Part shown: positions 1,139 to 61,592 of the stretch, piece by piece | Layout of the letters: every line of letters starts with the position of its first letter | How positions within the stretch are numbered: position 1 is the stretch's first letter | Source of the DNA: a virus | Lineage: Duplodnaviria > Heunggongvirae > Uroviricota > Caudoviricetes | Strand: one strand, 5' to 3' | DNA length: 64,000 bases | Virus record (IMG/VR): IMGVR_UViG_3300027819_000008 | Location: 27,405 to 91,404 of that record | The notes under the pieces: model-generated | The model's input: only the letters and a program-made list of their open reading frames with translations | Told to the model about the DNA's origin: nothing | Database searches by the model: none | Made by a program: the position numbers and the translations under genes

Positions 1139-1157
1139 GGCGTGTGTTCTGCTTTCT

Positions 1158-1724: not shown

Positions 1725-1747
1725 ACTGATTACAACCCCTACGTTCC

Positions 1748-3397: not shown

Positions 3398-3398
3398 G

Positions 3399-3653
3399 CT
3401 AGAAGAACGCCTGCTGCGCCGCGGCGGGCCGGTAGGTCGCGCCCGCCTCGGTGATCTGTCGCTCCAGCGCGGTGAAGTATTGCACGTTGACCTCATGGCA
3501 CTTGAGCGTGTCGGCCGCCACCTCGTTCAGCGTGTACCCCATCTTCTCCACGTACCGGTGAACAGCCGTCCGCTCCGCGGGCATGTGATCCCGCGCGTAC
3601 AGGTACGAGTAGAGCCGGCGCTTCAGGCCAAGCTCCCACCACCGGGACTCCAC
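3399..3653 (-). CDS. small helix-turn-helix-like protein encoded inside the polA-splitting insert
   Basis: C-terminal 60-80 aa look protein-like (YVEKMGYTLNEVAADTLKCHEVNVQYFTALERQI, HTH-like). Candidate GTG start at 3653 follows GGGGA; an alternative ATG lies at 3584. The upstream part of the track ORF 3399..4013 is W/R-rich frame junk. Confidence 0.3.
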   Translation of the reverse strand: MESRWWELGLKRRLYSYLYARDHMPAERTAVHRYVEKMGYTLNEVAADTLKCHEVNVQYFTALERQITEAGATYRPAAAQQAFF

Positions 3654-3852
3654 TCCCCGAGGCAGGGACCCACACGCGAAGTAGAACCTCACCGGCACCC
3701 CCGGAGAGTCTTGGCCAACCCCAAAACGGGGTGTACAACCCCCAAAACGGGCCCGTACGGGGCGATTGGGGGCTTCCCGGTGTGGTTGCACGGGAACCCC
3801 CCTCCCGACCCGCCCAGGGGGAGCCACGGCCGGGCGTGTCGAAATGGCACGA

Positions 3853-5103
3853 TCACAGGTACTCCGCCCGCCGCAGCCGGGCGTCCAGGGCCACCTCCAG
3901 CTCCAGCGTGGCGCAGGCGTCGTGCACCGCCCCACTAGCCACCTGCTCCAGGGGAAGGTCGCGCATCCGTCCCTTGTCCACCTCGGCCCAATACTGGCGC
4001 TTGCCCAGGACATCCACCACGGCCTTCTCCAGGCGCAGGCTCTCGTGCGTCCCGTCGCTGAGGGAGACGAGCGCGAGCATGGCGTCGCGCGTGCGGCGGA
4101 CGCGGTGTGCCCACCCGGGGACGACCAGCCCCTCCTCGTCGAAGTGCCCGTTGAACGCCGTCCGGTCGGCCGCAGAGGTGAAGGCCGGGGTCAGCAGCTC
4201 GCACACCCGCGCGCGGTGCGCGAGCAGCGGCGCGAGCTCCAGCCACGCCCCCTGCGTGAACGACCACGCGACCGCGACGCCGCGCAGGCGGAAGTCCGGG
4301 TGGCACGGGTCGGTGGAGACCTCCTTGCGGCTCGGGAACGCACCCCCGTCAAAGGACTCTATGTCGAAGGCCCACATCGCGCGGTGGCGAGTCAGGCGCT
4401 CGGCGAGCGCGCCCAGCTGGTCCAGCGTGGTGACCACCGTGACGCGCACCGCGGACTGGGGCTCCTGCCCGTGCAGGCGCTCGGCCATCCGCCGCATGTC
4501 GTCGGTGAACTGCGCCGTGAGTTCCGCGCGCCGCGCGGGGTCCGGCACCTGCTGGAGCGACCCGGGGTGTCGGTCCACGAACGCGTCCCGCCCGTCCGGC
4601 GTCCTGATCCACAGCCCGCGCACGCCGCCGAGTCGCTGCCGGGTGTTCCCTGTGACGTGGTGGAGCGGCGCGAGGCCGAGCACGAGCAGCGGGACCCCCG
4701 GGTCGTAGCGCGCGAGGTCGCGGGCCAGGTGGGCCGCGCAGCGCCGAGCCGACTCCTTCCACGCCTTACCCTCGAAGTCGTCCCCGGCCGGCCGGCACCG
4801 CGCGAGGTGCAGGTACGCGACGCGGTCCGGGTCCACGTTCGCGGCCTGGAGCGCCGGGCGCAGCACCCACTGGTCACCCTGCCCGCCCGGTGCGGTGGTC
4901 AGCACGATCAGCTGCGGGTCCTCACAGTGCACCGGGGGGACCTTGCGGTCCGGGGCGTCACTCGGGCACCCACTGCACGGGTTGCCGAGGTCCGCGGGTG
5001 TACGGGGAGTTTGTGGTGCTCCGGCAGTCCGCTGCCGCCGCTTTGGTGCGCGGGCGAAGGCCGGCCGGTCGAACTGAGAGAAGAAAGACGGCTGCTCCGT
5101 CAA
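3853..5103 (-). CDS. UDG-like domain fused to 3'-5' proofreading exonuclease (N-terminal piece of split PolA)
   Basis: Exo I (AFDIESFDGG), Exo II (FNGHFDEE) and Exo III (HDACATLE) motifs are present. The N-terminal half is Cys-rich and resembles family-4 UDG (as in SPO1 polymerase-associated UDG). TTG start at 5103. Ends with a TGA immediately followed by a hairpin-rich insert. Confidence 0.75.
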   Translation of the reverse strand: MTEQPSFFSQFDRPAFARAPKRRQRTAGAPQTPRTPADLGNPCSGCPSDAPDRKVPPVHCEDPQLIVLTTAPGGQGDQWVLRPALQAANVDPDRVAYLHLARCRPAGDDFEGKAWKESARRCAAHLARDLARYDPGVPLLVLGLAPLHHVTGNTRQRLGGVRGLWIRTPDGRDAFVDRHPGSLQQVPDPARRAELTAQFTDDMRRMAERLHGQEPQSAVRVTVVTTLDQLGALAERLTRHRAMWAFDIESFDGGAFPSRKEVSTDPCHPDFRLRGVAVAWSFTQGAWLELAPLLAHRARVCELLTPAFTSAADRTAFNGHFDEEGLVVPGWAHRVRRTRDAMLALVSLSDGTHESLRLEKAVVDVLGKRQYWAEVDKGRMRDLPLEQVASGAVHDACATLELEVALDARLRRAEYL

Positions 5104-28391: not shown

Positions 28392-31103
28392 CTACTGCGG
28401 GCCAGGGACGGCTCCGACCAGGGCGTGACCCTGCTCGCGGTACAGGCGCACGCGCTCCAGGGTGTGGAGCGCGAGGTGGTCCTTGTCCGGTCGGTCGGTC
28501 GGGGCGCCCCCGTCGGCGAAGTCGTACACGTCCACGGTGGTCTTGTCCGCGCGCGGGCGCAGCGCCCGGCCCAGGGCCTGCAGCGTGTCCACCTCGGACT
28601 TCCCCCCGGCCGCGTTCACGAACGCATCTATCTCCGGCAGGTCCACCCCCTCGCGGAAGAACGGGGTCGCGATGAGGAGCGCCCCGGTCGTAGCAGCCCG
28701 GAACGCCCCGAGCACGGCCTCGGCCCGCCCGGTCCCGACGTCGTCCCGGTCCAGCTGCCAGCACGGGTACTGCCGGGACACCGCGGACCACCAGTCGTGC
28801 AGGGCGCGGGCGTGCTCCACGATGCGGCACAGGACGAGGACCCGGTGGCCCTGCTTGGCGTGGTGCATCGCGATGCGCAGCACCCGCGCGTTCCGCTCCC
28901 GGTTGGTGGTGATCCCCCGCTCGTAGAAGGTGCCGTACAGCTGACTCCCCATCGTCTGCAGCCGGCGCGGGTCCCTCTTCCAGTCCGGGAGCACGATCTC
29001 GCGGACGTCCTCGTAGGACGGGTAACTCGAGGCCGGCGGACGCACGAAGCGGATGGTCGCGCGCGCCAGGTAGCCCTGCTGCGTCAGCGCGGTCGTGTCC
29101 GTCAGCACCACGATCGGGCCAAGCGCCCCCTCCATGTGCAGAGCGCGGACGGGGTCCTTGATGTTGACCGCGGTGCCCGACAGCCCGAGGCGGGTGCGCG
29201 CGCCGACGCACGCCTTGGCCACCGCGAGCCACGTCGCCGCGCTCGCGTGGTGGCAGTTATGTACTATGAGTCCCAAGCCTACGATGTAGGTGTGGGCGCG
29301 CTCGACTTCAAGGTTGTAGACGTAACCGTCTGGACACACGCCTCCAAATGTTCCATCACGTCCCGGTTCGAGAACCTCAACACTGTCCACCCGGCGCCTT
29401 TCAGGAAGTCTTCTTTCCGCTTGTCCCGGGCCCGTACCATCCGCGATCCGTGGCTCCCGCCGTCCACTTCTATCGCGATCTTCTCGGCTTTGTTCGCCAC
29501 ATCCACCTTGTAATGACTGGGGAGCCCCCTGAAAGCCGGACGCCGCCCCGTAGACACGACGACTTCCACTGGCCAACCTAATGCGTTGGCAAGTGCTTGC
29601 TGGGCAGCGGGGATCGGTTTCCCGTTGCCCCCTTGCGTCCGCGGCTTGTGGCCCATTGCTCGCAAGGTGGAGGAAACTTTCGCCCGCGACGTTGGGGACC
29701 TCATTGGGTTGTGCACCCGCATTCGTTGGGAGGCGCAACGTCGGTTCGTCGCGGCCATCGTTCTTGACGAGAGCTGTGCACACCACAGGCGCCGACACCG
29801 CTCGCTGCAATAGGCGCGTCTCACTGAGCGCCAAAGGTGCCGGGTTCCCTTGGTTGTGACTTTGGTCAACTCGCCACACCACGTGCACGTTACTTGAATC
29901 TCCGTCGGCCCCCACAGGCGGCGAGCCAGAGCCTTGAATTTCGCTGAAGCTTCCAGCTTGGCCTGCGTTGTTCGACACGTCGCGGAGCAGTATGCACGGG
30001 CCGATCTTCTGTAAAGCTTTCTCGCTACAGGTGTTTCCACCCGCGTTGCTTTCTGACATGTCGTGCACGGAACTTCTAATGGTACTGTCATGGTGCGTCC
30101 AGCATAACACAACGGACCCGGCGCAAAGTTTACCCGCAGCTACCCAGCCAGTTTCCGTCAAGATTGGGTGGTTCGGAGTGCAGACTATCTTTTCCCCGGA
30201 GACTGTGAGTCGTACCAAGCTTAAAGCGCGACTCCGCATGGTGTGAGTAACTTTGGCCATGACGTAACTGTCCTGGTACCACGCGGGGACAACGTCCCCC
30301 ACCTGAATAGATGAGATGGGTACATTGCCAACCATGGTGGACCCTGGAAAGCACTCGTCCTCTATCAGCATGTCGAAGTCCCGGAAGTACGGCGCGGTCA
30401 CCGAGTTCTTCAGCGAGGCCGTGAGCCCGACGGTGACCTCCCCCAGCTGGAACTCCCCGTCCCCGACCACGCCGAGGGTGACGGTCGGGAGGGACTCGCG
30501 CAGCTGGTCCAGCGTCTGCCGGAGCAGCGCCTGCGTCGGGACCACCCACAGCACGCACCCGCCGTGCTGGCGGGCCATCTCCACCCCGATCTTGGTCTTG
30601 CCGCCGCCGGTCGGGCACTGCAGGATCAGGCGGGGGACCGGCAGCGTCCGGAAGAGCTGGAAGGCCTGCAGCTGGTACGGGCGCCACTCTATGGTGGTGG
30701 GTGGTGCGAGTGGGAGTCGCTGCTGCGCGGTCTCCCGGGGCTCCACGAGGGCCACCCGGTACTTGTGCTCCTGCAGCACGCGCTGGACGCGCGCGAGGAG
30801 GCCGGTCTCAAACGAGTTGCCGGGTCGGCGCAGGAACTTGGTGCTGCCGTCCCAGCCAAACTTGGAGGCCCGGCTGTACTTGGCCTTCGGGTTCTTGACG
30901 GACAGTGCGGTGCTGACGAGCTCCACGGCCTCGTCGGGCCCGGTCAGGACCGAGCGCACGACGCCGACCCGGATCGTGCAGTCCGCGGTGTCCACGTCCC
31001 CTATATCCTGCGAGGTGGGTTGTATGGCGCGCACCGAACGCGCTACCATAGGGACCTCACCGTGCCTCTGGGTTAGCTGCAGCGCCCCGGGTCCGGCGGC
31101 CAC
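28392..31103 (-). CDS. SF2 DECH-box DNA helicase (ResIII/XPB-like) interrupted by an intein
   Basis: Walker A ILQCPTGGGKT. Motif II DE|CH is split by the intein (LIEDE + intein + CHHAS). Motif VI is QALGRALRP. GTG at 31103; an alternative ATG lies at 31049. Confidence 0.8.
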   Translation of the reverse strand: MAAGPGALQLTQRHGEVPMVARSVRAIQPTSQDIGDVDTADCTIRVGVVRSVLTGPDEAVELVSTALSVKNPKAKYSRASKFGWDGSTKFLRRPGNSFETGLLARVQRVLQEHKYRVALVEPRETAQQRLPLAPPTTIEWRPYQLQAFQLFRTLPVPRLILQCPTGGGKTKIGVEMARQHGGCVLWVVPTQALLRQTLDQLRESLPTVTLGVVGDGEFQLGEVTVGLTASLKNSVTAPYFRDFDMLIEDECFPGSTMVGNVPISSIQVGDVVPAWYQDSYVMAKVTHTMRSRALSLVRLTVSGEKIVCTPNHPILTETGWVAAGKLCAGSVVLCWTHHDSTIRSSVHDMSESNAGGNTCSEKALQKIGPCILLRDVSNNAGQAGSFSEIQGSGSPPVGADGDSSNVHVVWRVDQSHNQGNPAPLALSETRLLQRAVSAPVVCTALVKNDGRDEPTLRLPTNAGAQPNEVPNVAGESFLHLASNGPQAADARGQRETDPRCPASTCQRIRLASGSRRVYGAASGFQGAPQSLQGGCGEQSREDRDRSGRREPRIADGTGPGQAERRLPERRRVDSVEVLEPGRDGTFGGVCPDGYVYNLEVERAHTYIVGLGLIVHNCHHASAATWLAVAKACVGARTRLGLSGTAVNIKDPVRALHMEGALGPIVVLTDTTALTQQGYLARATIRFVRPPASSYPSYEDVREIVLPDWKRDPRRLQTMGSQLYGTFYERGITTNRERNARVLRIAMHHAKQGHRVLVLCRIVEHARALHDWWSAVSRQYPCWQLDRDDVGTGRAEAVLGAFRAATTGALLIATPFFREGVDLPEIDAFVNAAGGKSEVDTLQALGRALRPRADKTTVDVYDFADGGAPTDRPDKDHLALHTLERVRLYREQGHALVGAVPGPQ
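29256..30353 (-). mobile_element. intein (366 aa) in helicase motif II
   Basis: Block A CFPGSTMV, block B GEKIVCTPNHPILT, block F VYNLEVERAHTY, block G IVGLGLIVHN followed by extein Cys. The central ~250 in-frame aa are low-complexity. The surrounding region has lower GC. Confidence 0.75.
29279..30112 (-). CDS. DUF559/Vsr-like (PD-(D/E)xK) endonuclease with two zinc ribbons, nested in the +1 frame inside the intein
   Basis: Two CxxC...YCSxxC repeats. C-terminal region HYKVDVANKAEKIAIEVDGGSHGSRMVRARDKRKEDFLKGAGWTVLRFSNRDV matches the DUF559 core. The frame differs from the intein frame. Confidence 0.65.
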   Translation of the reverse strand: MCYAGRTMTVPLEVPCTTCQKATRVETPVARKLYRRSARAYCSATCRTTQAKLEASAKFKALARRLWGPTEIQVTCTWCGELTKVTTKGTRHLWRSVRRAYCSERCRRLWCAQLSSRTMAATNRRCASQRMRVHNPMRSPTSRAKVSSTLRAMGHKPRTQGGNGKPIPAAQQALANALGWPVEVVVSTGRRPAFRGLPSHYKVDVANKAEKIAIEVDGGSHGSRMVRARDKRKEDFLKGAGWTVLRFSNRDVMEHLEACVQTVTSTTLKSSAPTPTS

Positions 31104-51811: not shown

Positions 51812-53065
51812 CTAGATGCTGCCCGGCTTCCAGCTCACCTCGGTGAGCACCGCGACCGCCTTGTCGTGCCGCATGCCGAAGTCGTGCTCCGCGATGGCGC
51901 GCACGACCGTCTGGTCCTGCGAGAACGCGGCGACGACGCTGGACCCGTCGTAGTACGCGGCGTCCGCCGACGTGTCCACGAGCAGGTTCATCGACTCGCC
52001 GATGACCGCCTGGGCCATGTCGGCCAGGTACAGCTCGGACTTGTTCGACGCCGCACCGACGTTCACCGGCACGTTCGTCGTCACGCCGTACGGCCAGCCC
52101 CAGAGGGTGCCGCGCGTCGCCATCTCCTCGAGGAAGACCGCGTAGCCGTTGCTGTTGAGGACGGTCTTGAGGAACGTCTCGGTCCGCGGCGCCATGATCC
52201 ACGCCGGGGCCAGCATCGGGATGTTCGCCTCGAGCAGCTTGAGGATCATGTCCCCCAGGTCGTTGAAGACGTTCTGGAGGGTCACCGAGGAGCGGGCCGC
52301 GATGACGTTGTCGGCGTGCGCCCAGTAGCGCAGGCCCTTCGGGCCGGAGCCCGTTCCGTCGTCCCGGATGAACGCCTGGTCCTCCCGCTGCCGCATCGCG
52401 TTCACCGTGTCGTCGCGGACGATCGTGTCCGCGCCCGGCGAGCTGTAGCGCAGGAGGTCGTTGGACATCGGCACCAGCGTGACGAGCTTCTTGAACGTCA
52501 GCGCCAGCTGGCCCGTCGTCTGCTCGCTCTTGGTCGCGTTGGCGTTCTCACCGACGTAGTACGCCGTCGCGCCGCCCGTCAGCTTCGGGATCTTCGTCGT
52601 GCCGGTCGGGACCGGCAGCGTCCGCGCCCGCAGCTTGCGCACGACCGACTGCGCCCGGAGGAACTCGATGACCTCCTGGCTGAACTGGGTCGGCACCAGG
52701 AACCCGCCCGCGGTGGCGTCGCCGGCCGCGAGGGCCTTGGTGCGGGCGTCCTCCCACTTCTCGGCGAGGTCCGGGCTGCCCCACTTCTTCAGGATCTCGA
52801 TGGCCCCGGCCGGGCCCGCCTGCGCGAGCTTGGAGGCCGCCGTCGCGCGCACGCACTTGGCGAACGCGAGGCCCTTCTCGTCCATCGGGACGACGCGCTC
52901 GGCCGCGGCGCCCCCCTTGAACATCTGCGACATCTGCGCGACCCACGCGGGCGCCTGCGCCCCCTGGGCCTCGGCCAGCTGCGACTTGATCTGCTCGCCG
53001 ACCACCTCGGCCACGATCGGGCCGCAGTTCTCGCGGATGAGCGCGACCAGCTCCTGCTTCGTCAT
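51812..53065 (-). CDS. major capsid protein (HK97 fold)
   Basis: 417 aa with typical HK97-family blocks (GGFLVPTQFSQEV..., NNLQPY-like region). Directly follows the prohead protease. Confidence 0.85.
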   Translation of the reverse strand: MTKQELVALIRENCGPIVAEVVGEQIKSQLAEAQGAQAPAWVAQMSQMFKGGAAAERVVPMDEKGLAFAKCVRATAASKLAQAGPAGAIEILKKWGSPDLAEKWEDARTKALAAGDATAGGFLVPTQFSQEVIEFLRAQSVVRKLRARTLPVPTGTTKIPKLTGGATAYYVGENANATKSEQTTGQLALTFKKLVTLVPMSNDLLRYSSPGADTIVRDDTVNAMRQREDQAFIRDDGTGSGPKGLRYWAHADNVIAARSSVTLQNVFNDLGDMILKLLEANIPMLAPAWIMAPRTETFLKTVLNSNGYAVFLEEMATRGTLWGWPYGVTTNVPVNVGAASNKSELYLADMAQAVIGESMNLLVDTSADAAYYDGSSVVAAFSQDQTVVRAIAEHDFGMRHDKAVAVLTEVSWKPGSI

Positions 53066-53097
53066 GACTCTCGTCCTCCGTCCCTTCTGGTTCGAAA

Positions 53098-54576
53098 CTA
53101 GTCCACGCGTCCGCGCGCGATGTTCATGGCGCGGCGGGTTTCCACTGCGATCGCCTCTCGGAGCGTCGCGGCGAACTCCGCCGCGCTGATGTCCTCGAGT
53201 CCGTCCGCGGCCTTGATGTCGTCCAAGTCGATCACGTCGTCCGCGGTGAGCTGGATGATGTGGTCTTCATTGGGCGCCGCCACCACCACGAGGGCCGGAT
53301 CATTGTCCGTACCGCCCCCTGCGGACTGGGCCGGGGGTAGCGGCGCCGCCGCACTGCCTGCGGGCATCAGCGCGTGCCGGTGCCCGTCGCTCTCTTCGGT
53401 CTCGCCGCGCGCCAGGCTCGCCGCCGTGATGCGGTGCGAGTGGTCCGCGACCTGAAACGCCATGCCGCCGTCGAAGACCACCTGGCCCCCGTCGCGGGTG
53501 TAGACGTACAGCGAATAGTCGTGGACGTGGATCGCCGCGCTGGAGCCCTGGGCGGGGGTGGTGTACCCGGCGGTCTCGAACCCGCCGTAGGCCTTCTCCA
53601 CCTTGGGGGGCGCCTTGATCGCCGCTGCGGCGTCCTTGGGCGCGTCCTCCACGACCGGGGCCTGCGCGACCAGGGCGAGTACCTCGCCGATCTTCTCGTG
53701 GGCCTGCCGGAGCTTGCCCTCGTTGGCGCTCGACAGGACCCGGCCGCGCTTGGCGACGGCTTCCGCGAGCTTGAGGACGGCCTCCGCGGCCTTCCCCTCC
53801 TCCATCGGGCACTCCTCGCCCATGCCGCAGGCCCCGTTCTCACCCTCACCGGCCATGCACTCCTCGCCGGCCGGGCATTCGCGCTTGCGCGAGGCCTTGG
53901 CAAACGAGTAGGACCGGTTGACGGAGGCCTCGAGCGCGGTGAAGCGCTCCAGGAAGGCCGGGTCCAGGACGGCGGTCGGCGCGCAGCCGACGGCCTCCAG
54001 GGTCTTGGCCGCCCACTCGCGCAGCGGCTCTACGTCCACCCCGGCCGAGCGGGCCTCCACGAGGGCGCCCGCGTTGGCGGGGACCGGGACGATGCTGACC
54101 TCCAGGAGCGACTGCTTCGCGAAGTTCACGCCCTTGCGCTGCTCGTCGTACGACCAGTCCTCGGGCTTGAACCCGACCGAGGTCGCGTTGAGCCACCCGC
54201 CCTTGACCATCCGGAAGATGGTGTCGGCGAACGGGGAGAGCTCCTTAGGCATGAACTCGATGTCGGACGACATCTTGGAGGCCCCCATCGTCAGCGCGAG
54301 CGAGCGCCCGATCGGCGGCTGGCTGTAGTCGTGGGCCCACTGGATGACGGGGTTGGCGTTGAAGTCCTTGACGTCCCACCCCGCCGAGTCGATGACGTCT
54401 CGGTCGCGGTCGACCTGGTTGGTCGTGACCGTGAAGCGGACCACCCGCGAGTCATCCCCGCCGACCAGCGCCTTGGACGCGATCGTGAACGCCTTGCGGA
54501 TGCCGTACTCCTCGGGGAGCTCGCCGGACTTCTGGAGCCGAACCATCTGGTCGGAGGTCAGCCAAGAGCGCTTCAT
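53098..54576 (-). CDS. prohead protease (HK97 family) with C-terminal scaffold-like region
   Basis: FTVTTNQVDRDRDVI...NPVIQWAHD...PIG block typical of HK97 proheads. Cys/Glu-rich linker and Ala-rich helical C-terminus. Confidence 0.75.
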   Translation of the reverse strand: MKRSWLTSDQMVRLQKSGELPEEYGIRKAFTIASKALVGGDDSRVVRFTVTTNQVDRDRDVIDSAGWDVKDFNANPVIQWAHDYSQPPIGRSLALTMGASKMSSDIEFMPKELSPFADTIFRMVKGGWLNATSVGFKPEDWSYDEQRKGVNFAKQSLLEVSIVPVPANAGALVEARSAGVDVEPLREWAAKTLEAVGCAPTAVLDPAFLERFTALEASVNRSYSFAKASRKRECPAGEECMAGEGENGACGMGEECPMEEGKAAEAVLKLAEAVAKRGRVLSSANEGKLRQAHEKIGEVLALVAQAPVVEDAPKDAAAAIKAPPKVEKAYGGFETAGYTTPAQGSSAAIHVHDYSLYVYTRDGGQVVFDGGMAFQVADHSHRITAASLARGETEESDGHRHALMPAGSAAAPLPPAQSAGGGTDNDPALVVVAAPNEDHIIQLTADDVIDLDDIKAADGLEDISAAEFAATLREAIAVETRRAMNIARGRVD

Positions 54577-54722
54577 GCACGAACCCCCGGAGTCGAAGTC
54601 TTCTGTACGCGCATTACACGACTATCGTATTTCGACGTCGGGTGAAGAATGAAACGCCGGGGAAAGTTAAACCGCCCGGGAGGCCGGGCGGTCTGGGGGG
54701 AAGCGCTGCGGAGGGGCGGGGA

Positions 54723-55445
54723 CTAGTTGGGCGGCTGGGGCGGCCGACCCTGGTTCCGGTCCACGGCGAACCACTCGCGGCCGCGCTTGGTCAGCTCCTC
54801 GTGATGGATCGCGCGGCGCGCGTCGCTGACGACGTCGTTGCCGTACTCCAGCTCCTTGTCGTAGTGGTAGCCGTACAGGTACGGCGAGGACGTCAGCAGC
54901 GAGGCGTCGGTCACCTTGATCCCGCGGCCCTCGGCCACGCCTATCCAGTACGTGACGCATGGCAGCTCCAGCAGCCGCTCGCGCGGCGAGCCCCGCCACA
55001 GCTGGAGGCCGTACAGCCCGATCTCCGTGAACCCGTCCACGATGGCCAGCGCGATCTGGTACGCGAACGTGCAGGTGAAGTAGTCGTCGCGCAGCCCGGC
55101 CGCGTGCAGGCGCTCCATCGGGTACACCACGCCCTGCGGGACCAGCGGCGTCGCCTCTAGGACGTAGCACGGGGTCCGGCACGCCGCGAGGAACGCCATC
55201 TCCCGCGCATCCTGCGGCGGTACGGTGACTGGGTGGAGCTCGAAGTGCCGGTCGTAGTGCGGCTGCCAGATCTCGTTGATGGCCCACACGCACCACTCGC
55301 GGTCCCCACGGTCGTAGCCCGGGGCCTGCCCGCGCCCGGCAGCAGCGCCGACGATGGCGACCCTGGTGTGGTGGCAGCGGACCTCGCCGCGCTCGCGCGA
55401 GGTGATGAACTCGTGGGGGGCCTCCAGGAGGGGCGGTGACTGGCT
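54723..55445 (-). CDS. hypothetical protein (240 aa)
   Basis: ATG (MSQSPPLLEAPHEF) overlaps the upstream stop. The track N-terminus is junk. Confidence 0.35.
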   Translation of the reverse strand, partial: SQSPPLLEAPHEFITSRERGEVRCHHTRVAIVGAAAGRGQAPGYDRGDREWCVWAINEIWQPHYDRHFELHPVTVPPQDAREMAFLAACRTPCYVLEATPLVPQGVVYPMERLHAAGLRDDYFTCTFAYQIALAIVDGFTEIGLYGLQLWRGSPRERLLELPCVTYWIGVAEGRGIKVTDASLLTSSPYLYGYHYDKELEYGNDVVSDARRAIHHEELTKRGREWFAVDRNQGRPPQPPN

Positions 55446-55930
55446 CATCGGTCGGCCAGCTCGACGGCGAGGAGCGCCGGCCAGTGCTCGCTGCTGCCCC
55501 GCTTCATTTCCGCGCCCCGCGCGTCGCTGACGCGGTGTTCCCGAAACGGGAGTGCCGCGCAGCGAAACCACACGGCGCAGACCTTCCCGTCGGGGCCGAC
55601 CTCGACGTCCAGCCAGGTCGAGCGGTGGAGCGTCCGGTCGTGACCGTAGACCTTGCCATGGAGGAGTTCGTTGACAGGAGGGGCCTGCCCCATGCGCGGC
55701 GGAGCGCCGTGCTGCTCCAGGCACGCCACCCCGAGCGCGGTGACCTTGCGGAGCTCGTGCAGGGCGAGCTTCGTACCCTCGTTCTCGGTCAGCGCGCGCC
55801 GGGCCTTCGCGAGGTACTCCTCCATGTAGACCAGGAAGGCGCCGACGCCCTCGCGGTCCGCCCCCCACTTCTTGACCTGAAACGCGCGCTCGCCGTCCAG
55901 CGCCTCGTAGACTTCCGCCCTCGTGGCCAT
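55445..55930 (-). CDS. hypothetical protein (possible MazG-like NTP pyrophosphohydrolase)
   Basis: MATRAEVYEALDGERAF...FLVYMEEYLAKARRAL. Weak call. Confidence 0.25.
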   Translation of the reverse strand: MATRAEVYEALDGERAFQVKKWGADREGVGAFLVYMEEYLAKARRALTENEGTKLALHELRKVTALGVACLEQHGAPPRMGQAPPVNELLHGKVYGHDRTLHRSTWLDVEVGPDGKVCAVWFRCAALPFREHRVSDARGAEMKRGSSEHWPALLAVELADR

Positions 55931-56081
55931 CAGGACTTCTCCTTCTTTCGGTTCCCGCTGAGCTTCGCGGGCAAAATGTTGGCGGCCTGGGAACACGCGC
56001 CGCAGCGCGTCAGGCCGCGCGCGTCGGGGCGGCAGCGGTGGCACCGCATGCGGGCATCGCACCTGCAAATCGTGCAGACAC

Positions 56082-56558
56082 TTACGCGCTGACTAGCGGG
56101 CCGGTCCACTGATTGCGACAGCGTCCCCGCTCCATCCTGTCGCGCATGTTTTGCTTGTGCGTTCCTGGGTAAAGGTGCTCCGGACGAACGCAGCGACGAT
56201 TGTCGCAAGTGTGAAGCGTGTTCATCCCGTTCGCGATTGCTCCACGAATTAGCGCAAATGACACCTGGTGCGCTAGATAGGTTTGATTGAGGAAGGAAAA
56301 CGACCCGTAACCATTGCAACCATCGTTCGGCCATTCCCAGCATCCCGCCTCCGTAACGCAGACGCGGCTATAGAACTTTGTCGCATCAATCAATTGCGCG
56401 AGATTGACGAGGTCAAGTCGCTCCGATGCTCGCCGACGAGCGCGTTTTACCTTGGCGTGGTTCACACAAAGGGAGCGATTCGCCTCGGCAGGCTCGGAGC
56501 AGAAAAGGCAGAGGCCAAGCACACGATGGCGTTCTCGATACGCCGCTTGCGGCGTCAC
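56082..56558 (-). CDS. HNH homing endonuclease (free-standing, low-GC island)
   Basis: CWEW...GYGSFSF...AHQVSFALIRG...HTCDNRRCVRPEHLYPGT. Local GC about 52%. Confidence 0.8.
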   Translation of the reverse strand: MTPQAAYRERHRVLGLCLFCSEPAEANRSLCVNHAKVKRARRRASERLDLVNLAQLIDATKFYSRVCVTEAGCWEWPNDGCNGYGSFSFLNQTYLAHQVSFALIRGAIANGMNTLHTCDNRRCVRPEHLYPGTHKQNMRDRMERGRCRNQWTGPLVSA

Positions 56559-56715
56559 CGGCGCGGGCTCCGCCCGAGCTGCACCTGGACTTGGACTTGC
56601 CGAAGGGACTCCCGCTTCGGCGGCGCGGCCTGGTCGAGGAGCCTGGTGTAGGCGAAGTACTTCATGATCTGCTCGTAGGGGACTCCGACCCGCAGCAGGG
56701 ACTCCACCGTCGAGT

Positions 56716-57753
56716 TCACTCGGCGGCTGCCTCGGTCAGCTCGGTCAGGCTTGACGCGGAGAGGTCATCCTCGCGCTCCGCCTGCGGCGGGCGCGGCGGG
56801 ACCTTCCCCCGGTGAAAGAAGTCGCAATTGTGGGTTATGATAGTTCCCGCCACCAGTAGTCCGGATCTGCTGTAGAAGGAGTACACATGTTCCGCAAGCA
56901 ACACCTGCCGAACGAGGACGACCTCATCCACCGTTACCAAACCGGAGAGTCGCTGCTGAAGCTGAGCCGCGACTGCGGTCGCTCCGTCACCATGCTCCAG
57001 CGCCACTTCAGGAAGCGCGGTGTGTCGCTGCGCGGGTGGTCCGCCGCGCAGCGGATCGTTTGGCAAGATCGCGACCGCGCAGCTACCGTCGCCCAGTGCT
57101 CGGCCGCGTGGCGGGCGAGCCGAGGCGCCCCGGTCCCGGAGGAGCGGCTGAGAAAGATAGCCCGGGCGCGAGGACGAAGGGTTGGCAGGTACGAGCAGCG
57201 CGTCGCCCGGCTGCTGCGCGAGGCGGGCTTTCAGGTCCAAACCCAACTGCCGGTGAACCGCTACAACCTCGACGTCGCCATTTTCGCCTCGCGCGTCGCC
57301 GTGGAAATCGAGGGCCGTCCGCTGTACTCGCCCCGTGAAAGACGCCGTTTGCTGGAGCGCACGAAACACCTCACCAGCGCGGGGTGGCGCGTGCTGTACG
57401 TATACCTGCGATCCCGCTATCCCTGTCCTGTGATCCGGCCCACCAGTGCGGTGGTGGAACACGTAGTCGCCCTCACGCAGGGCCGAGGCCTCCACCCAGC
57501 CGCGGGCGGTGGCTACCGGGTGATTCGGAGTGACGGCCAGCCGTTGTCCCGATCGTGTTTCCACCTGGACGGCGTTCCCCAGGTATAGGTACCGCGCGGC
57601 GCCCAGCCACGCGTCGCTACTTACTGGGATGGAAGCGGGTACGCACATGATTCTGTTCGCCACCGCCCAGTCGTCGCCGTAGACGCAGTGGTGGTGGGGA
57701 CAGAGCGCGATGCTGCTCGCGAGCTGAAGACCACAGATCGCACAGATACTCAC
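56716..57753 (-). CDS. Hint/intein-like domain ORF with very short flanking sequences
   Basis: CVYGDDWAV (block-A-like), VTPNHPV (block B) and a C-terminal GTIITHN followed by Cys. The central part is low-complexity, being antisense to the DUF559 gene. GTG start. Confidence 0.4.
   Translation of the reverse strand: MSICAICGLQLASSIALCPHHHCVYGDDWAVANRIMCVPASIPVSSDAWLGAARYLYLGNAVQVETRSGQRLAVTPNHPVATARGWVEASALREGDYVFHHRTGGPDHRTGIAGSQVYVQHAPPRAGEVFRALQQTASFTGRVQRTALDFHGDARGENGDVEVVAVHRQLGLDLKARLAQQPGDALLVPANPSSSRPGYLSQPLLRDRGASARPPRGRALGDGSCAVAILPNDPLRGGPPAQRHTALPEVALEHGDGATAVAAQLQQRLSGLVTVDEVVLVRQVLLAEHVYSFYSRSGLLVAGTIITHNCDFFHRGKVPPRPPQAEREDDLSASSLTELTEAAAE
56887..57588 (+). CDS. DUF559/Vsr-like endonuclease with N-terminal HTH (the only clear plus-strand gene)
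   Basis: NRYNLDVAIFASRVAVEIEGRPLYSPRERRRLLERTKHLTSAGWRVLYVY matches the DUF559 core. HTH TGESLLKLSRDCGRSVTMLQRHF. Lower-GC region. Confidence 0.65.
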   Translation: MFRKQHLPNEDDLIHRYQTGESLLKLSRDCGRSVTMLQRHFRKRGVSLRGWSAAQRIVWQDRDRAATVAQCSAAWRASRGAPVPEERLRKIARARGRRVGRYEQRVARLLREAGFQVQTQLPVNRYNLDVAIFASRVAVEIEGRPLYSPRERRRLLERTKHLTSAGWRVLYVYLRSRYPCPVIRPTSAVVEHVVALTQGRGLHPAAGGGYRVIRSDGQPLSRSCFHLDGVPQV

Positions 57754-57757
57754 GGGC

Positions 57758-57988
57758 TCACCCGCGCACCAGGTAGAACCCGCTGCTGGTCCGCCCCGTC
57801 TCGCCCTTGCGGTAGTCGGCGAACGCCGCGAGCACGACGGCCTCGGCCCGGTCCAGCTCGGCCGGAGTCAGCCCCGGCTGCAGGCGCAGGAACCCAAACA
57901 CGCGCGTCTCGGCCAGGACCTCCTCTATGCGGGCGCGGAGCGCGGCCATCCGGGCCTCCGCCTCGCCGGGGGTCGCGGGCGCACTCAT
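57758..57988 (-). CDS. hypothetical small protein (76 aa)
   Basis: ATGA overlap start (MSAPATPGEAEARMAALRARIEEVL...). Confidence 0.3.
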   Translation of the reverse strand: MSAPATPGEAEARMAALRARIEEVLAETRVFGFLRLQPGLTPAELDRAEAVVLAAFADYRKGETGRTSSGFYLVRG

Positions 57989-58335
57989 AGTCCCCACGAC
58001 CGGTCCCACTGCAGCACCGGCGCCCCACCCGGTACGGTTCCGTCCCACGGTCCCTCCCTCCCAGGGAACGCGCGGGTGCGGACGACCTCGTGGGTCGTCG
58101 GGTCCCGGTCATACCCCAGCACCAGGTGGTGCGTGATCCGGCCAGCCAGGTCCATGTACGTCACCACGGTCGGCTCGCCCCACGCGTCGAACCACGGCTG
58201 CCCCGAGTCCCGCAAGAGGCTGCTCCCGACTCCGTACACCACACCCGAGGGCGCGGGGCTGCGCTCAGCCGCGAGTCGGTACTGGGTATCCGCGGCATGC
58301 TGGACGATCTCGGCGAGGATTTTCGGTGCGCTCAC
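57985..58335 (-). CDS. hypothetical protein (116 aa)
   Basis: Well-composed ORF. Confidence 0.35.
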   Translation of the reverse strand: MSAPKILAEIVQHAADTQYRLAAERSPAPSGVVYGVGSSLLRDSGQPWFDAWGEPTVVTYMDLAGRITHHLVLGYDRDPTTHEVVRTRAFPGREGPWDGTVPGGAPVLQWDRSWGL

Positions 58336-58342
58336 GCCGGGG

Positions 58343-58567
58343 TCACGGCCGGGCCACGCGCAGCTGGCGGACGATCGGGAGGTCGAGGTCCTCCTCAGAT
58401 TTCGCGTAGTACAGGTCCACGACGATCACGCGCTCGGCGTTGACCTCGAGCTCCAGGAGCTGGGCCTCCGCGGCGCGGCGGACCCGACCCGGCAAGTGCA
58501 CGCGGCCGAGCTCGGCCAGCGCGTTGGCGACGCTGGTCGCGACGAAGGAGCAGTCATTCTTTGGCAC
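58343..58567 (-). CDS. hypothetical small protein (74 aa)
   Basis: ORF. Confidence 0.3.
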   Translation of the reverse strand: MPKNDCSFVATSVANALAELGRVHLPGRVRRAAEAQLLELEVNAERVIVVDLYYAKSEEDLDLPIVRQLRVARP

Positions 58568-58587
58568 GCCGCTACCTCCCTACTCCC

Positions 58588-59277
58588 CTATATCCGCGCC
58601 GGGCGATTGCGCAGCCAGTCTGTGTTCTCTTCTCCCTCAAGCTGCACGGCCTCATCGTCCCCCTCGGCTTTCCCAATGACGCTGTTGACCCGAGCTTTCG
58701 GGAGCTTGACGCCCAGGACTATGTGCTCGAACTCGGTCGCCATCTTGTTCTTGGGCGCGAGCGCGGTCAGGACCTCGTGGGTTGCAAAGACCTGGGAGAC
58801 TGGGACGCGAATCTTGAGCACCGCGCCGCGCTTCCCTCGCTCCTCCGACTGGTACTCGGCGAACCCGTCCGCAACCTCCATCTCGGTCGTCCATGAGGAA
58901 AGGGGATTCTGCTTCGGGTCAACCTTGGCCCCGCGCCGGAGCTTCTGGTCCGTCCCGATCCCCCGGTACAGGGTGACCTGAGTGACGCCGGCCTGCCGAA
59001 ATGCCTCCTGCGTCAGGGCGTAGATGGTCCGGGCGGCCTCGCGGTCGACGTCGTTGGCCGCGGGCGGCTTCTTGCCTCCAGTGAACTGAAACTGCCCGCC
59101 CGCCTCCTCCATGACCGCCGCCTGGAGGTGGAGCGCGTCGACTCCAACCGCGCTGATGTTGGTCCACCGCTGCGCCGCGTCTTGCATGCGCTTGGCGATT
59201 TTCGGCGGGACGTTCTCGGGATCTCGGACCCAGGCCCCGAGTCGAGCGACCCGCTGATCCCACGACCCCTCGCCCAT
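58588..59277 (-). CDS. putative ADP-ribosyltransferase (Arg / Ser-Thr-Ser / Glu-x-Glu type)
   Basis: LYRGIG (Arg), SSWTT (Ser-Thr-Ser-like) and ATEFEHIV (Glu-x-Glu), with the spacing expected of a cholera-toxin-like ADP-ribosyltransferase. Directly downstream of the MuF gene. Confidence 0.4.
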   Translation of the reverse strand: MGEGSWDQRVARLGAWVRDPENVPPKIAKRMQDAAQRWTNISAVGVDALHLQAAVMEEAGGQFQFTGGKKPPAANDVDREAARTIYALTQEAFRQAGVTQVTLYRGIGTDQKLRRGAKVDPKQNPLSSWTTEMEVADGFAEYQSEERGKRGAVLKIRVPVSQVFATHEVLTALAPKNKMATEFEHIVLGVKLPKARVNSVIGKAEGDDEAVQLEGEENTDWLRNRPARI

Positions 59278-59312
59278 GTCGAAGGTCCTCTCCCCCAGCG
59301 CCGCCGGGGCCC

Positions 59313-61256
59313 TCAGCTCTCCGTCGTGGGTCCACGCCCCACCCCCAGCGTGCGGCGCGCCGCCTCCCTCGACCGCCTCGTCACCGCCTTGCTAAACCGC
59401 CCGGCGTCGTCGCGCGGGTGCTCCGACTCGTCAAACTCCTTGGCCTCCGCCACCAGCCGAATGACCACCGGGATGCTGCCGTCGGCCGGCATGAAGAGGA
59501 CCTCGCCCACCTGGGCCTCGGCGTCGAAGAACGCCAGGTCCCCGTCCAGCTCGGGGCAGCAGCCCGGCCGCACGTACGCGAGCGTCAGGTGGGGGACGTA
59601 CGCGGGCTGGGTGTCCTCGTGGGGCAGCGCGCCGAGCGCGTCGTGCAGGGCCACCAGGTCGTCGGACTGCACGCTGGCGTAGAGCACGTCCGCGTCGGGC
59701 TGCCGGAAGCGCCGGACGTCCCCGAGCTTGAGGTGGACCGGCCCGCGGCCGCGCAGCAGCGGGGCGACCCGCTCCGCGGTGACCCCCGGGTCCAGGCCGT
59801 AGCGCACGGTCACGTGCGGGTGCAGCTCCCGGCCGCCCTCGGCCAGGTCCCCGTCGGCCACGCGGTCCCGGGCCCACGCGAGCGCGGCCTCGGCGAGGTG
59901 CTCCGGCAGCTCGACCTGGGTGCTCGCGTACTCGTGCGGTGCGCCCTTGATCAGGCTCTCGGCGCGGGTCCAGTCGGCCTCACTCTGCTCCAAATGCTTT
60001 CTGGGCTTGGCCCCCACCGACTCGCGATAGTCCAGGACCCACGCCGGCGCAAACTTGAAGCCCGCCCGCTTCCAGAAGCGCACCCGGTGATTGCCGTCCA
60101 GCACGGTCAGCCGCGACTTGCCGTCGCGCCCCTGGGAAACTACCCGGGGCGACCGGTCCTCGGCGTCCGGGCGCCCCCAGTCAGTCTTGGGCGCCTCTCC
60201 GGGCTCCATCGGGCGCCACGTCCCGACACGATCCTCCGGGCCTTCCCCACCGCCACCGGACTCATCACCACCTCCGCCCCCGCCCGAACCGAAGCGCCCG
60301 TCCTCGTCTCTCGGGGGGTCCTCCTCGTTCCACTCGCCCTTAGTCCAGCCCGGCACGACCGCCCGGCGCTCCACCTTCTGGAAGCGCAGGACGACCGCAC
60401 ATCTGCAGCCGGGATGCGCCGGTGGGCGGAAGTAGGCCTCGCCATTCGGGTGCTCAAACGGTGCGTCCAGGGAGGTCTCAGCTTCGTCCAAACTTTCACA
60501 AATCTTTATGTCCACGCGATCGTCCTGCGCGGTACTCCAGACGCGCGTGGTCTCTTCGCGGTCCAGCAGGCCCTCGTTCGCGGCGGCCTGCCACAGGGCC
60601 TCCTGCCCCGCGGAGCTTGCATTTATAGTCTCGGTTCTCGCGATGTTCATGGCGCGGTAGTCCAGCAGTGCGTCGGCGTACTTCGCGACGCGGCGCTCGA
60701 CCCTGGCCGCGGACTCCCCACCCTCGACCAGCCGCGCGCGGAACTTGGCGACGGCCTCGATCTGCCGGGAGTGCAGGCCGACCACCCGCCGGATCTCCTC
60801 GGCCAGGTCGGTCGGCGCGATCCCCTGCTCCTGCGAGCGCAGGACCAAGGCGCGCACGCCGGCGCGGGTGGAGTCGGTCAGCTCTGTCACGAGCTCCGCC
60901 CCGTGCTCGCGCACCCACGCGATGCTCAGCGGGTTCTTGAGGTCGAAGCCGAGCGGTCCCTCCTCCACCCCGATGAGCTCCGCCCCGAGCGACACACCCA
61001 GCGCGAAAGTCCGGCCGAGCAGGGGGTCCAGCAGGCGCTTGACGGTGTCCGGCAGTACGCGGTCCAGCAGCGCGGCCACCTCCACCTGGGACAGGGAGCC
61101 CGAGCGCAGGGCCTCGGCCAGCGCCCCGACGTCCACCTGTGAGGCCGTGGAGCGCGCGGCGCGCCGAAAGGCGCGGGCGACGTGGGGCTCCATGCGCGCG
61201 GCAAGCCGTGTCATCAGCGGGTCGCGGTCCGAGGGCGCCTTGTACCGGGACCCCAT
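59313..61256 (-). CDS. MuF/SPP1-gp7-like minor head protein fused to a ParB/Srx-like domain and a 2H (LigT-like) phosphoesterase domain
   Basis: MuF block NIARTETINASSAGQE...PPAHPGCRCAV. Then LTVLDGNHRVRFWKRAG (the ParB/sulfiredoxin DGxHR motif). The C-terminus has two His-x-Thr-x motifs (HPHVTV and PHLTLAY). The start is uncertain: track 61463, likely ATG near 61256. Confidence 0.65.
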   Translation of the reverse strand: MGSRYKAPSDRDPLMTRLAARMEPHVARAFRRAARSTASQVDVGALAEALRSGSLSQVEVAALLDRVLPDTVKRLLDPLLGRTFALGVSLGAELIGVEEGPLGFDLKNPLSIAWVREHGAELVTELTDSTRAGVRALVLRSQEQGIAPTDLAEEIRRVVGLHSRQIEAVAKFRARLVEGGESAARVERRVAKYADALLDYRAMNIARTETINASSAGQEALWQAAANEGLLDREETTRVWSTAQDDRVDIKICESLDEAETSLDAPFEHPNGEAYFRPPAHPGCRCAVVLRFQKVERRAVVPGWTKGEWNEEDPPRDEDGRFGSGGGGGGDESGGGGEGPEDRVGTWRPMEPGEAPKTDWGRPDAEDRSPRVVSQGRDGKSRLTVLDGNHRVRFWKRAGFKFAPAWVLDYRESVGAKPRKHLEQSEADWTRAESLIKGAPHEYASTQVELPEHLAEAALAWARDRVADGDLAEGGRELHPHVTVRYGLDPGVTAERVAPLLRGRGPVHLKLGDVRRFRQPDADVLYASVQSDDLVALHDALGALPHEDTQPAYVPHLTLAYVRPGCCPELDGDLAFFDAEAQVGEVLFMPADGSIPVVIRLVAEAKEFDESEHPRDDAGRFSKAVTRRSREAARRTLGVGRGPTTES

Positions 61257-61592
61257 CACGACACCACCCGGCGCGCGTGGGGGGCCGGTGGCGGCAGGAG
61301 GCGACGCTCGCGCTCCACCTTCTCCGCGTAGCTGTCGGCGGCCGGGCGCTTGACCAGCTTCCCGGTGCGCTCGTCCACCTTCCAGGACCCCCGGTGGGCC
61401 TGCGGGTGCACGTCCATCAGCTACACAGCAGGTCGCGCCACTCGGCGCGGGTCTGCCCCTCATAGCGCTGGCGGGAGAAGAACTCCACGCACTGATCGAG
61501 GTTTTCCTGGGAGTACTCGTGATCGCACATTAGCCGCGGCTCCGCCGGCAGCGCGGGGTCTATGACCAGGTAGAAGAACAAGCAGAACAGGC

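Follow-up and report, generated by a model that had tools for sequence, protein, structure and literature searches.

The window analysed here is a stretch of 64,000 nucleotides (nt) from a Caudoviricetes virus (IMG/VR record IMGVR_UViG_3300027819_000008, positions 27,405 to 91,404), with a guanine-plus-cytosine (GC) content of 69.8%. At one locus, among head-module genes for a MuF-like protein, an S78 protease and the major capsid protein, two open reading frames (ORFs) overlap on opposite strands: a 345-amino-acid (aa) frame on the minus strand, which we interpret as a small gene interrupted by an intein, and a 233-aa frame on the plus strand, which encodes a DUF559-type nuclease with a helix-turn-helix (HTH). 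An earlier note, made by a model from the sequence alone, had pointed to these two frames, and both are indeed present; its observation is real and correct in outline, with boundaries that are corrected below. The features of the locus, in window coordinates and with a caret marking insertion or splice points here and throughout, are the following.

56716..57753, minus strand: precursor ORF, GTG start, 345 aa, made up of N-extein, intein and C-extein
57646..57753, minus strand: N-extein, 36 aa (MSICAICGLQLASSIALCPHHHCVYGDDWAVANRIM), placed by colinear alignment with uninterrupted homologues
56827..57645, minus strand: intein, 273 aa, C37..N309, with the class-1 signature of Cys1, a TPNH block B and a terminal His-Asn
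56716..56826, minus strand: C-extein, 36 aa plus stop, opening with the +1 Cys (56824..56826)
57451..57645, minus strand: N-terminal half of the Hint domain, blocks A and B (CVPAS...TPNHP...GWVEASALREGDYVF), with a partial match to Pfam Intein_splicing and a match to the mini-intein profile
56827..56952, minus strand: C-terminal half of the Hint domain, blocks F and G (...AEHVYSFYSRSGLLVAGTIITHN), placed by the family alignment and the mini-intein profile
56953..57450, minus strand: central part of the intein frame, the in-register antisense translation of the nuclease gene
56887..57588, plus strand: nuclease gene, ATG start, 233 aa, HTH plus a DUF559/MTES_1575 Vsr-like core
~56917..57054, plus strand: N-terminal HTH of the nuclease, HTH_58
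~57151..57399, plus strand: nuclease core, DUF559/MTES_1575, with the invariant D129 and E140
from ~57460, plus strand: C-terminal tail of the nuclease, antisense shadow of Hint block B
56875..56889, plus strand: Shine-Dalgarno sequence and ATG of the nuclease (GAAGGAG at 56875..56881, a 5-nt spacer, ATG at 56887)
56812..56841, plus strand: sigma-70-like promoter match, GTGAAA-18-TATGAT, a consensus match only

The precursor ORF has no in-frame stop across its 345 codons and is tightly packed in a minus-strand head-module operon: its stop overlaps the GTG of the next ORF (GTGA), and the stop of the ORF upstream ends 4 nt before its own GTG. A search with the whole minus-strand ORF retrieved a protein (P0003) that is uninterrupted at its C-terminus, ...CPHHHCVYGDDWAVANRIM-CDFFHRRKVPP.... 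When the two flanks (aa 1-36 and aa 310-345) were joined, the spliced product was a 72-aa Cys/His-rich protein, colinear with uninterrupted homologues of 62-74 aa at 58-76% identity (nine aligned). In the ten-sequence alignment that includes the spliced window protein, the junction falls between an invariant M36 and an invariant C37.

Because the flanks rebuild the uninterrupted homologues with the junction at NRIM^CDFFH, the intein extends from C37 to N309 and starts with CVPASIPV. As in an inserted intein, it is in frame, begins with Cys37 and leaves flanks that restore an uninterrupted homologue; the +1 Cys, C310, is the invariant Cys of the host family in the motif NRIM^CDFFHRG. Of the intein-like blocks proposed previously, two are confirmed: TPNHP, and IITHN at the terminus with Cys after it. 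The motif CVYGDDWAV, taken for block A, is conserved among the uninterrupted homologues and hence belongs to the extein, so that the N-extein has 36 aa, not 22.

The C-terminal flank of 36 aa, plus the stop, is as first described. The exteins were thought to amount to almost nothing, and this view has to be abandoned: they form a complete conserved protein of 66-72 aa and are not vestigial. The intein is almost four times the length of its host protein, and few known intein hosts may be as small as this 72-aa zinc-finger-like protein.

The class-1 catalytic signature is complete (Cys1, T75-P-N-H78, H308-N309 and C310), with the His-Asn terminus followed by Cys at +1 (H308-N309^C310). In an eight-sequence family alignment, T-P-N-H of block B is invariant; the next residue is Pro in seven of the eight and Gln in Escherichia coli phage Snoke. 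We joined the N and C halves of the window intein and of seven relatives into a "mini-intein" alignment (A3), the profile of which hits mini-inteins of solved structure over both halves: Mtu RecA (5k08, E 2e-11), but also Pho RadA, NrdJ-1, Spl DnaX, DnaB and Hedgehog, with 26 PDB sequences at E<=0.01. Pfam Intein_splicing is matched by all eight members (best E 1.3e-9).

AlphaFold2 (AF2) models of the intein frame placed beta strands in the Hint halves, with pLDDT (predicted local distance difference test) scores of 64-78, against 23-50 in the centre. We used the models only for this contrast, as weak support. The centre of the intein frame is probably an unstructured linker.

Judged by its sequence, the plus-strand ORF is a genuine nuclease gene. 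It exceeds the gathering thresholds of three Pfam families, namely MTES_1575 (E 1.2e-10, 41.8 bits; gathering 38.2), DUF559 (E 1e-6, 29 bits; gathering 20.6) and HTH_58 (E 3.2e-6, 27.4 bits; gathering 23.8), which bears out the proposal that the centre of the minus-strand ORF is antisense to an HTH plus DUF559/Vsr-like nuclease gene. In the nuclease family alignment (A4), Y126, D129 and V137-A-V-E140 are invariant, and the window protein also keeps E142, giving E-x-E. HTH_58 is present in five of the seven family members, and the HTH is duplicated in the Gordonia phage relatives Affeca and Malisha and in a metagenome protein (P0111).

The nuclease family profile matched the DUF559 structure 3HRL over the core (E 1.9e-7) and the E. 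coli Vsr structure 1CW0 at only E 0.39. A phmmer search with the nuclease against PDB sequences returned nothing meaningful, 3HRL being reached by the family profile only. I-Bth0305I (3R3P) was matched at E<=10 neither by the single nuclease sequence nor by the family profile, and no EDxHD motif was seen by eye in the aligned core, no motif search having been run; an assignment to the EDxHD homing endonucleases was rejected on these two grounds. The family is large, with 1,531 representative clusters (50% identity) at E<=1e-3 and 689 at E<=1e-10.

The two frames are in exact codon register (56887-56716 = 171 = 57x3), so that each plus-strand codon is the reverse complement of one minus-strand codon. 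The chance that one frame stays open behind the other was assessed by synonymous codon resampling with the phage's own codon usage. Since openness is uninformative in the window at 70% GC, the test was moved to relatives of about 50% GC. In phage Snoke (51% GC), the probability of an open antisense frame was 4e-4 and that of an open intein frame 8e-3; in Vibrio phage CP-T1, which carries a DUF559 ORF in a helicase intein, the other frame stayed open in 0 of 20,000 resamples, whichever frame was resampled (P below ~5e-5).

Constraint was read from pairwise differences between close relatives, counted by codon position of the intein frame (position 1 of the intein frame is position 3 of the nuclease frame). 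The counts at positions 1, 2 and 3 were:

Snoke versus LP31: Hint N-end 1, 1, 3; Hint C-end 1, 0, 4; centre 24, 2, 3
Snoke versus Pantoea phage AH01: Hint N-end 14, 8, 17; Hint C-end 2, 1, 11; centre 63, 11, 28
Affeca versus Angelicage: Hint N-end 1, 1, 16; Hint C-end 1, 1, 6; centre 49, 7, 25

At the Hint ends, the differences fall at intein position 3 (1, 0, 6 in a further example), and in the centre at position 1. The switch in substitution positions means that the ends change in the manner of an intein-coding frame and the centre in that of a nuclease frame on the opposite strand. In the window, codon-position composition follows the same division: the exteins have a GC content at third codon positions (GC3) of 0.81-0.86 in the minus frame (N-extein 0.81), and the centre has a plus-frame GC3 of 0.81, compared to 0.70 at the would-be minus-frame GC3 position. 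We take both frames to be real because of the domain and profile matches, this composition and the relatives, not because of openness in the window.

The shared register leaves legible traces. LDFHGD and GDVEVV in the intein centre are what the nuclease motifs VAVEIEG and YNLDV give when read as the reverse complement, and YRVIRG in the nuclease tail is the shadow of VTPNHP. This antisense tail motif is carried by 130 of the 149 best nuclease homologues. Within the 130, the residue opposite the Pro of H-P is G/R/W in 123, exactly the set encoded by NGG, and that opposite the block-B Thr is G/R/S/C in 127, exactly the set encoded by NGT. Starts of the form M-[P/T/S/A], whose second residue is the antisense of the Gly in G-H of block F, were found in 125 of the 149. 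Tail fingerprint and start pattern together imply that most of the top-matching nucleases are probably nested antisense in inteins.

As a separate observation, many of the homologues P0112-P0260 end in ...LDGLPR(I/V)PGF and most of them start with M-[P/T/S/A], ends that look like shadows of blocks A and F. In most of the family, then, the nuclease ORF seems to cover nearly the entire intein.

In tblastn searches of phage genomes, the minus-strand ORF matched 122 records and the plus-strand ORF 89, at the same places and on opposite strands. These places are MuF/head-morphogenesis genes of Pseudomonas, Salmonella (Jerseyvirus), E. coli (Snoke), Pantoea, Cronobacter and Gordonia phages. The Gordonia phages are Affeca, Fosterous, Vivi2, Angelicage and Malisha (E 9e-13 and 9e-11 for the two frames), and in Snoke an intein is annotated. 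Snoke has a continuous 630-aa MuF ORF together with an open 269-aa antisense ORF containing the nuclease motifs, and one Pseudomonas phage and two Gordonia phages likewise combine a continuous MuF ORF with an open antisense nuclease ORF. In four enterobacterial phages, the antisense in-register frame, counted over 273 codons (272 of the intein plus the +1 Cys codon), has one stop, located at the intein N-terminus.

The best non-self nuclease homologue in a library of 1.84 billion proteins (P0112, 43% identity) is also antisense to a MuF intein, the frame of which reads ...EPM^CFVPGTEV...TPNHP...GHVYDLQ...IVTSN^CRC. Since the relatives sit at HPxN^CRC of MuF/minor-capsid genes, the window element belongs to this MuF-intein lineage and has switched host gene. 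The window's own MuF gene (59313..61463, minus strand) has the usual intein site empty (HPG-CRC). We found no DNA similarity between the window insertion site and this empty MuF site beyond the TGC Cys codon, and therefore no evidence of how the switch occurred.

One related MuF-intein locus (L118, 431..958, plus strand) carries a truncated nuclease of 175 aa (P0110), and its antisense intein frame has a stop upstream of the Hint C-terminal half. An element of this kind may be decaying there.

A search with the joined flanks (aa 1-36 plus 310-345) retrieved 104 proteins of 43-117 aa (most ~62-115) at 53-81% identity, most of them without a Pfam domain and none long enough for an intein-sized insert; the uninterrupted junction was read directly in the nine homologues aligned. 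At the DNA level, a metagenome scan for extein relatives kept 80 loci from 98 relatives. Together with other fetched loci, these gave 95 alleles with the motif NR[IL]MC, all uninterrupted there. DNA conservation along the gene is highest in the stretch around the junction, ATCATG^TGYGACTTCTT, and the window flanks match the 95-allele consensus at 41 of 48 positions.

Empty target sites, to be looked for in related phages according to the earlier note, thus exist, and one of the uninterrupted alleles is on an IMG/VR viral contig (L029, 3001..3201). In synthetic form, the intein-less junction reads TGGGCGGTGGCGAACCGCATCATG^TGCGACTTCTTCCATCGC. Six loci that had looked partial (L039, L078, L098, L037, L066 and L083) were considered as intein-bearing alleles and rejected, being intein-less or cut by a contig end.

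The genome collection contained 18 loci with a gene of the host family, mostly in metagenome-assembled genomes (MAGs) of Candidatus Rokubacteria/Methylomirabilota, with other MAGs too. Overall, the uninterrupted homologues number more than 100 and come mainly from this group and from soil metagenomes. This makes Rokubacteria/Methylomirabilota the likely host phylum of the phage. The protein with CxxC...CPHHHC...NRIMCDFFHRG (62-74 aa; L005, L007, L011-L028) is conserved and unannotated on Rokubacteria/Methylomirabilota chromosomes; in L005 and L007, two chromosomal metagenome loci, the small gene is flanked by a PLD-like gene and a B12-binding radical-SAM gene.

On the complementary strand, the nuclease ATG reads as the CAT codon of His289 in block F. 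In Snoke, the Pseudomonas phage, Affeca and Malisha, the ATG likewise lies opposite the invariant His of GHVYxL, and these four lineages have GAGG, AAGG or GGAGG 5-7 nt upstream of it. The promoter-like match in the window lies 46 nt upstream of the nuclease ATG and spans the codons of the intein/C-extein junction; it is the one sigma-70-like match in 2.4 kb, compared to 0.1 expected.

Public gene calls for the same DNA (L009 and L010, corresponding to window positions 52887..61588 and 55048..58385) include the nuclease ORF (P0109) and omit the intein-bearing gene. The 345-aa precursor is also absent from a collection of 15 billion proteins. Such host genes are probably missed by gene callers systematically.

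Taken together, we consider it very probable that the locus is a small conserved gene with a class-1 intein, the ends of which form the Hint domain and the centre of which codes antisense for a homing-endonuclease-like HTH plus DUF559 enzyme, the two homing together. In the mechanism that we propose, the middle of the intein would be kept open only because its DNA encodes the antisense homing endonuclease in exact register. The nuclease would be expressed from its own Shine-Dalgarno sequence and ATG, antisense to Hint block F, and possibly from its own promoter. The precursor would be translated through the antisense-of-nuclease stretch, which would form a disordered loop where endonucleases are usually inserted in the Hint fold. 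The Hint halves would then associate and splice via Cys37, Thr75/His78, His308-Asn309 and Cys310, releasing the intact 72-aa host protein. The separately made nuclease would cut intein-less alleles near ...AACMGNATCATG^TGYGACTTCTTY..., and recombinational repair would copy intein and nuclease gene together (homing). This scheme is supported by the anatomy of the locus, the homology, the abundance of intein-less sites and, in relatives, selection specific to each frame.

Several observations weigh against this explanation. The minus-strand ORF matched Pfam Intein_splicing only partially and below threshold (E 8.2e-5, 22.9 bits; gathering 35.8), and the window sequence taken alone in the scan of A3 members reached 24.2 bits against the same threshold. 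In the family alignment, the block-F residue that is usually Asp/Asn is Ser in the window. AF2 gave mean pLDDT values of 51 and 42 for the two frames, from shallow four-sequence alignments and hence at low confidence. In the nuclease, family members differ at the third (acidic or Lys) position of the canonical motif, only D129 and E140 of that motif being invariant. At the window's 70% GC, the other frame stays open with P ~0.6 in both directions.

Moreover, no second intein-bearing allele of the small gene was found in the viral, genome and metagenome collections or in the protein database. Mobility at this site, like splicing, nuclease activity, the target site and expression, is something that we infer from sequence. 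A megablast search of 55500..59000 against phage genomes gave zero matches, and a tblastn search of phages with the spliced extein found nothing. Neither search thus yielded close relatives of this intein allele from which a ratio of nonsynonymous to synonymous substitution rates (dN/dS) could be taken.

Some of these points would suit a relic, in which the intein still splices and the antisense nuclease is inactive at this site (fixed, decaying or retargeted), its ORF being open owing to high GC. The nuclease-frame openness that is not significant in the window (P ~0.6) and the lack of a second intein-bearing allele among ~200 homologues agree with such a state. So do the nuclease-frame GC3 of 0.81, weaker than that of core phage genes (0.87-0.99), and the precedent of the related L118/P0110 locus, with its truncated nuclease and its stop in the antisense intein frame. 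We nevertheless regard a relic as unlikely: the nuclease ORF is of full length and retains D129 and E140, invariant in the family, plus the acidic E142, its Shine-Dalgarno sequence is strong and ideally spaced, a promoter-like site is present as well, it exceeds three Pfam thresholds, and codon-position GC in the centre still favours its frame.

A more radical alternative, anticipated in the earlier note, is that there is no intein and that the minus-strand ORF is the open antisense shadow of a free-standing DUF559 gene, which destroyed the small gene on insertion. This reading is already largely refuted, and we give it hardly any credence. In-register antisense frames of high-GC genes are usually open, the window's own Pfam Hint match is below threshold and public callers report the nuclease ORF alone; yet the Hint blocks lie mostly outside the nuclease domain, and the profile of the joined halves matches mini-inteins (5k08, E 2e-11). 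The insert is exactly in frame, with Cys first, His-Asn last and then the host's invariant Cys, its flanks rebuild a conserved protein and carry minus-strand codon bias, and in homologous inteins both ends are under purifying selection in the intein frame. It is equally improbable that the gene is fractured, with the two intein halves made as separate, trans-splicing polypeptides as in the systems of Dassa et al. 2009. The absence of a stop in 345 codons, of any start or ribosome-binding site seen for a separate C-half, and the intein frame kept open against expectation in the relatives of ~50% GC (P = 8e-3) speak against a split, even if the nuclease occupies the canonical endonuclease-insertion/split site and Vsr-like free-standing homing-endonuclease genes between split-intein halves are documented in that report (PMC2677866). 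Assignment to the fractured genes or naturally split inteins was rejected, given a single uninterrupted ORF and a nuclease gene that lies on the opposite strand.

Within the favoured explanation, a small gene with an intein and an antisense homing-type nuclease, there is also the question of how the two parts came together. We tentatively propose, though we would stop just short of favouring it, that Hint and antisense DUF559/HTH nuclease form an ancient, obligately overlapped composite element, rather than the outcome of an occasional landing of a nuclease in an intein. This idea is based on the start and ribosome-binding site fixed in the antisense of block F, on the tail running through block B and on the TxxHP fingerprint in most of the top matches, which suggests that the majority of this large family resides in inteins. 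If it were true, gene callers would annotate the nuclease and systematically miss the interrupted host genes, as at this locus, and the lineage could move from one host gene to an unrelated one, as from MuF to a 72-aa zinc-finger-like protein.

Elsewhere in the window there is a second pairing of a Hint domain with a DUF559 nuclease, and another mobile nuclease gene lies close to the intein gene.

28392..31103, minus strand: helicase ORF, with a 366-aa intein (29256..30353) at DE^CH in motif II
29279..30112, minus strand: second DUF559 ORF, in the +1 frame within the helicase intein, 277 aa, likely ATG at 30091
56082..56558, minus strand: HNH_3 endonuclease gene (E 1.4e-8, 34.7 bits; gathering 24.8), two genes downstream of the intein gene

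The +1 ORF in the helicase intein matches DUF559 above the gathering threshold (E 6e-13) and has zinc-ribbon-like N-terminal repeats. The same +1 arrangement occurs in Vibrio phage CP-T1 (L030, 2001..2750 within the helicase coding sequence 1118..4099, 46% GC) and in Corynebacterium phage phi673. Thus, the pairing does occur twice in the window, as had been noticed, once antisense and once in a shifted frame. The two nucleases share the catalytic core only (32% identity over 73 aa, E 1e-5) and differ at their N-termini (HTH versus zinc ribbons), and the two Hint domains are 46% identical over 39 aa around block B. Recent paralogy of either pair was rejected, as these are distant homologues only; together with the different N-termini, this indicates two independent elements of the same general type rather than a recent duplication. 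The recurring mobile-element design suggested at first stands in this sense, as a repeated pairing.

The HNH gene reported near the locus is there, and the surrounding low-GC island is marked only over this gene (0.57), being modest over the intein (0.66 versus 0.70). No stretch nearby is lower in GC than the HNH_3 gene (0.57, with a window mean of 0.70), and this suggests that the head module acquired a mobile nuclease separately. Also in this module, the MuF-like protein (59313..61463, minus strand) has a C-terminal 2H-phosphoesterase domain (Pfam 2_5_RNA_ligase2, E 3e-11, residues 544-655) that faintly resembles the anti-CBASS protein Acb1 (E 0.099). A virion-delivered effector fused to MuF is a possible explanation.

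Inteins with antisense VSR-like homing endonucleases have been described in actinophages by Gosselin, Arsenault and Gogarten in a PhagesDB survey (bioRxiv 10.1101/2025.01.02.630785, 2025), the hosts being DNA polymerase, minor capsid, terminase and thymidylate synthase genes. The architecture is therefore already described in this 2025 preprint, is still rare, and is the kind to which the predicted window element belongs. Like those inteins, ours has a contiguous Hint domain, an antisense Vsr-like nuclease and an in-frame centre without recognisable structure. The nuclease is of the Vsr/DUF559 fold group in both cases (here, Pfam above gathering and 3HRL at E 1.9e-7, 1CW0 only at E 0.39), and there is direct homology with the minor-capsid inteins, as both window frames match Gordonia MuF genes on opposite strands. 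Those authors suggest, on the basis of HHpred, an affinity with EDxHD enzymes, whereas our sequence and profile searches with the window nuclease match 3HRL and not 3R3P.

Unlike the published cases, the window host is a 72-aa Cys/His-rich protein and not a minor capsid protein, terminase, polymerase or thymidylate synthase, and the phage is not an actinophage, the chromosomal homologues of its extein being in Rokubacteria/Methylomirabilota. Going beyond that survey, we found the same architecture in Pseudomonas, Salmonella, E. coli and Pantoea phages, and the nuclease start and Shine-Dalgarno sequence hard-wired into block F. What is new here is thus the tiny non-enzymatic host, the non-actinophage setting, the Proteobacteria phages, the block-F start and the fingerprint that runs through the nuclease family.

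Two further systems offer useful comparisons. The 2025 preprint cites an earlier antisense LAGLIDADG in Synechocystis DnaX (Gorbalenya 1998; Gogarten 2002), and Phillips et al. (bioRxiv 10.64898/2026.09.14.751524) have reported frame-specific selection on out-of-frame LAGLIDADG in cyanobacterial DnaX inteins. The cyanobacterial DnaX intein and the element described here share an overlapping-frame homing-endonuclease gene in a contiguous intein, with purifying selection on the endonuclease frame and a relaxed intein frame in the overlap. They differ in the enzyme (DUF559/Vsr-like here, LAGLIDADG there), in the host gene and in the organisms.

Dassa et al. 2009 (PMC2677866) described free-standing Vsr-like endonuclease genes, with their own expression signals, between split-intein halves in a phage context. 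A Vsr-superfamily gene of the free-standing type at the intein endonuclease-insertion site, again in a phage, is common to their systems and ours. The endonuclease gene there is described only as a free-standing insertion between the halves, and it breaks the host gene into two trans-splicing ORFs; here the nuclease is antisense and the intein ORF contiguous.

As to the enzyme itself, the window nuclease has the core Y-x-x-D...V-A-V-E-x-(D/E)-G of the DUF559/MTES_1575/Vsr-like PD-(D/E)xK nucleases (PF04480, PF18741; 3HRL, 1CW0). An N-terminal HTH_58 and a long C-terminal tail shadowing Hint block B set it apart from its DUF559 relatives, and unlike DUF559/Vsr-like nucleases in general, its family shows no conservation at +2 from the catalytic Glu.

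Our results extend the antisense-nuclease intein design, so far found only in the actinophage preprint, to a phage of a different, uncultivated host group and to Proteobacteria phages, and point to an element able to colonise a very small non-enzymatic gene. They also expose a blind spot of annotation, in that public calls for the same contig give the nuclease and omit the intein-bearing gene. With a 72-aa extein, a 273-aa intein and a 233-aa nuclease, the locus offers a compact set for splicing and homing tests. More generally, it is a natural case of two opposite-strand proteins sharing one codon register, where the passing of constraint from one to the other can be measured.

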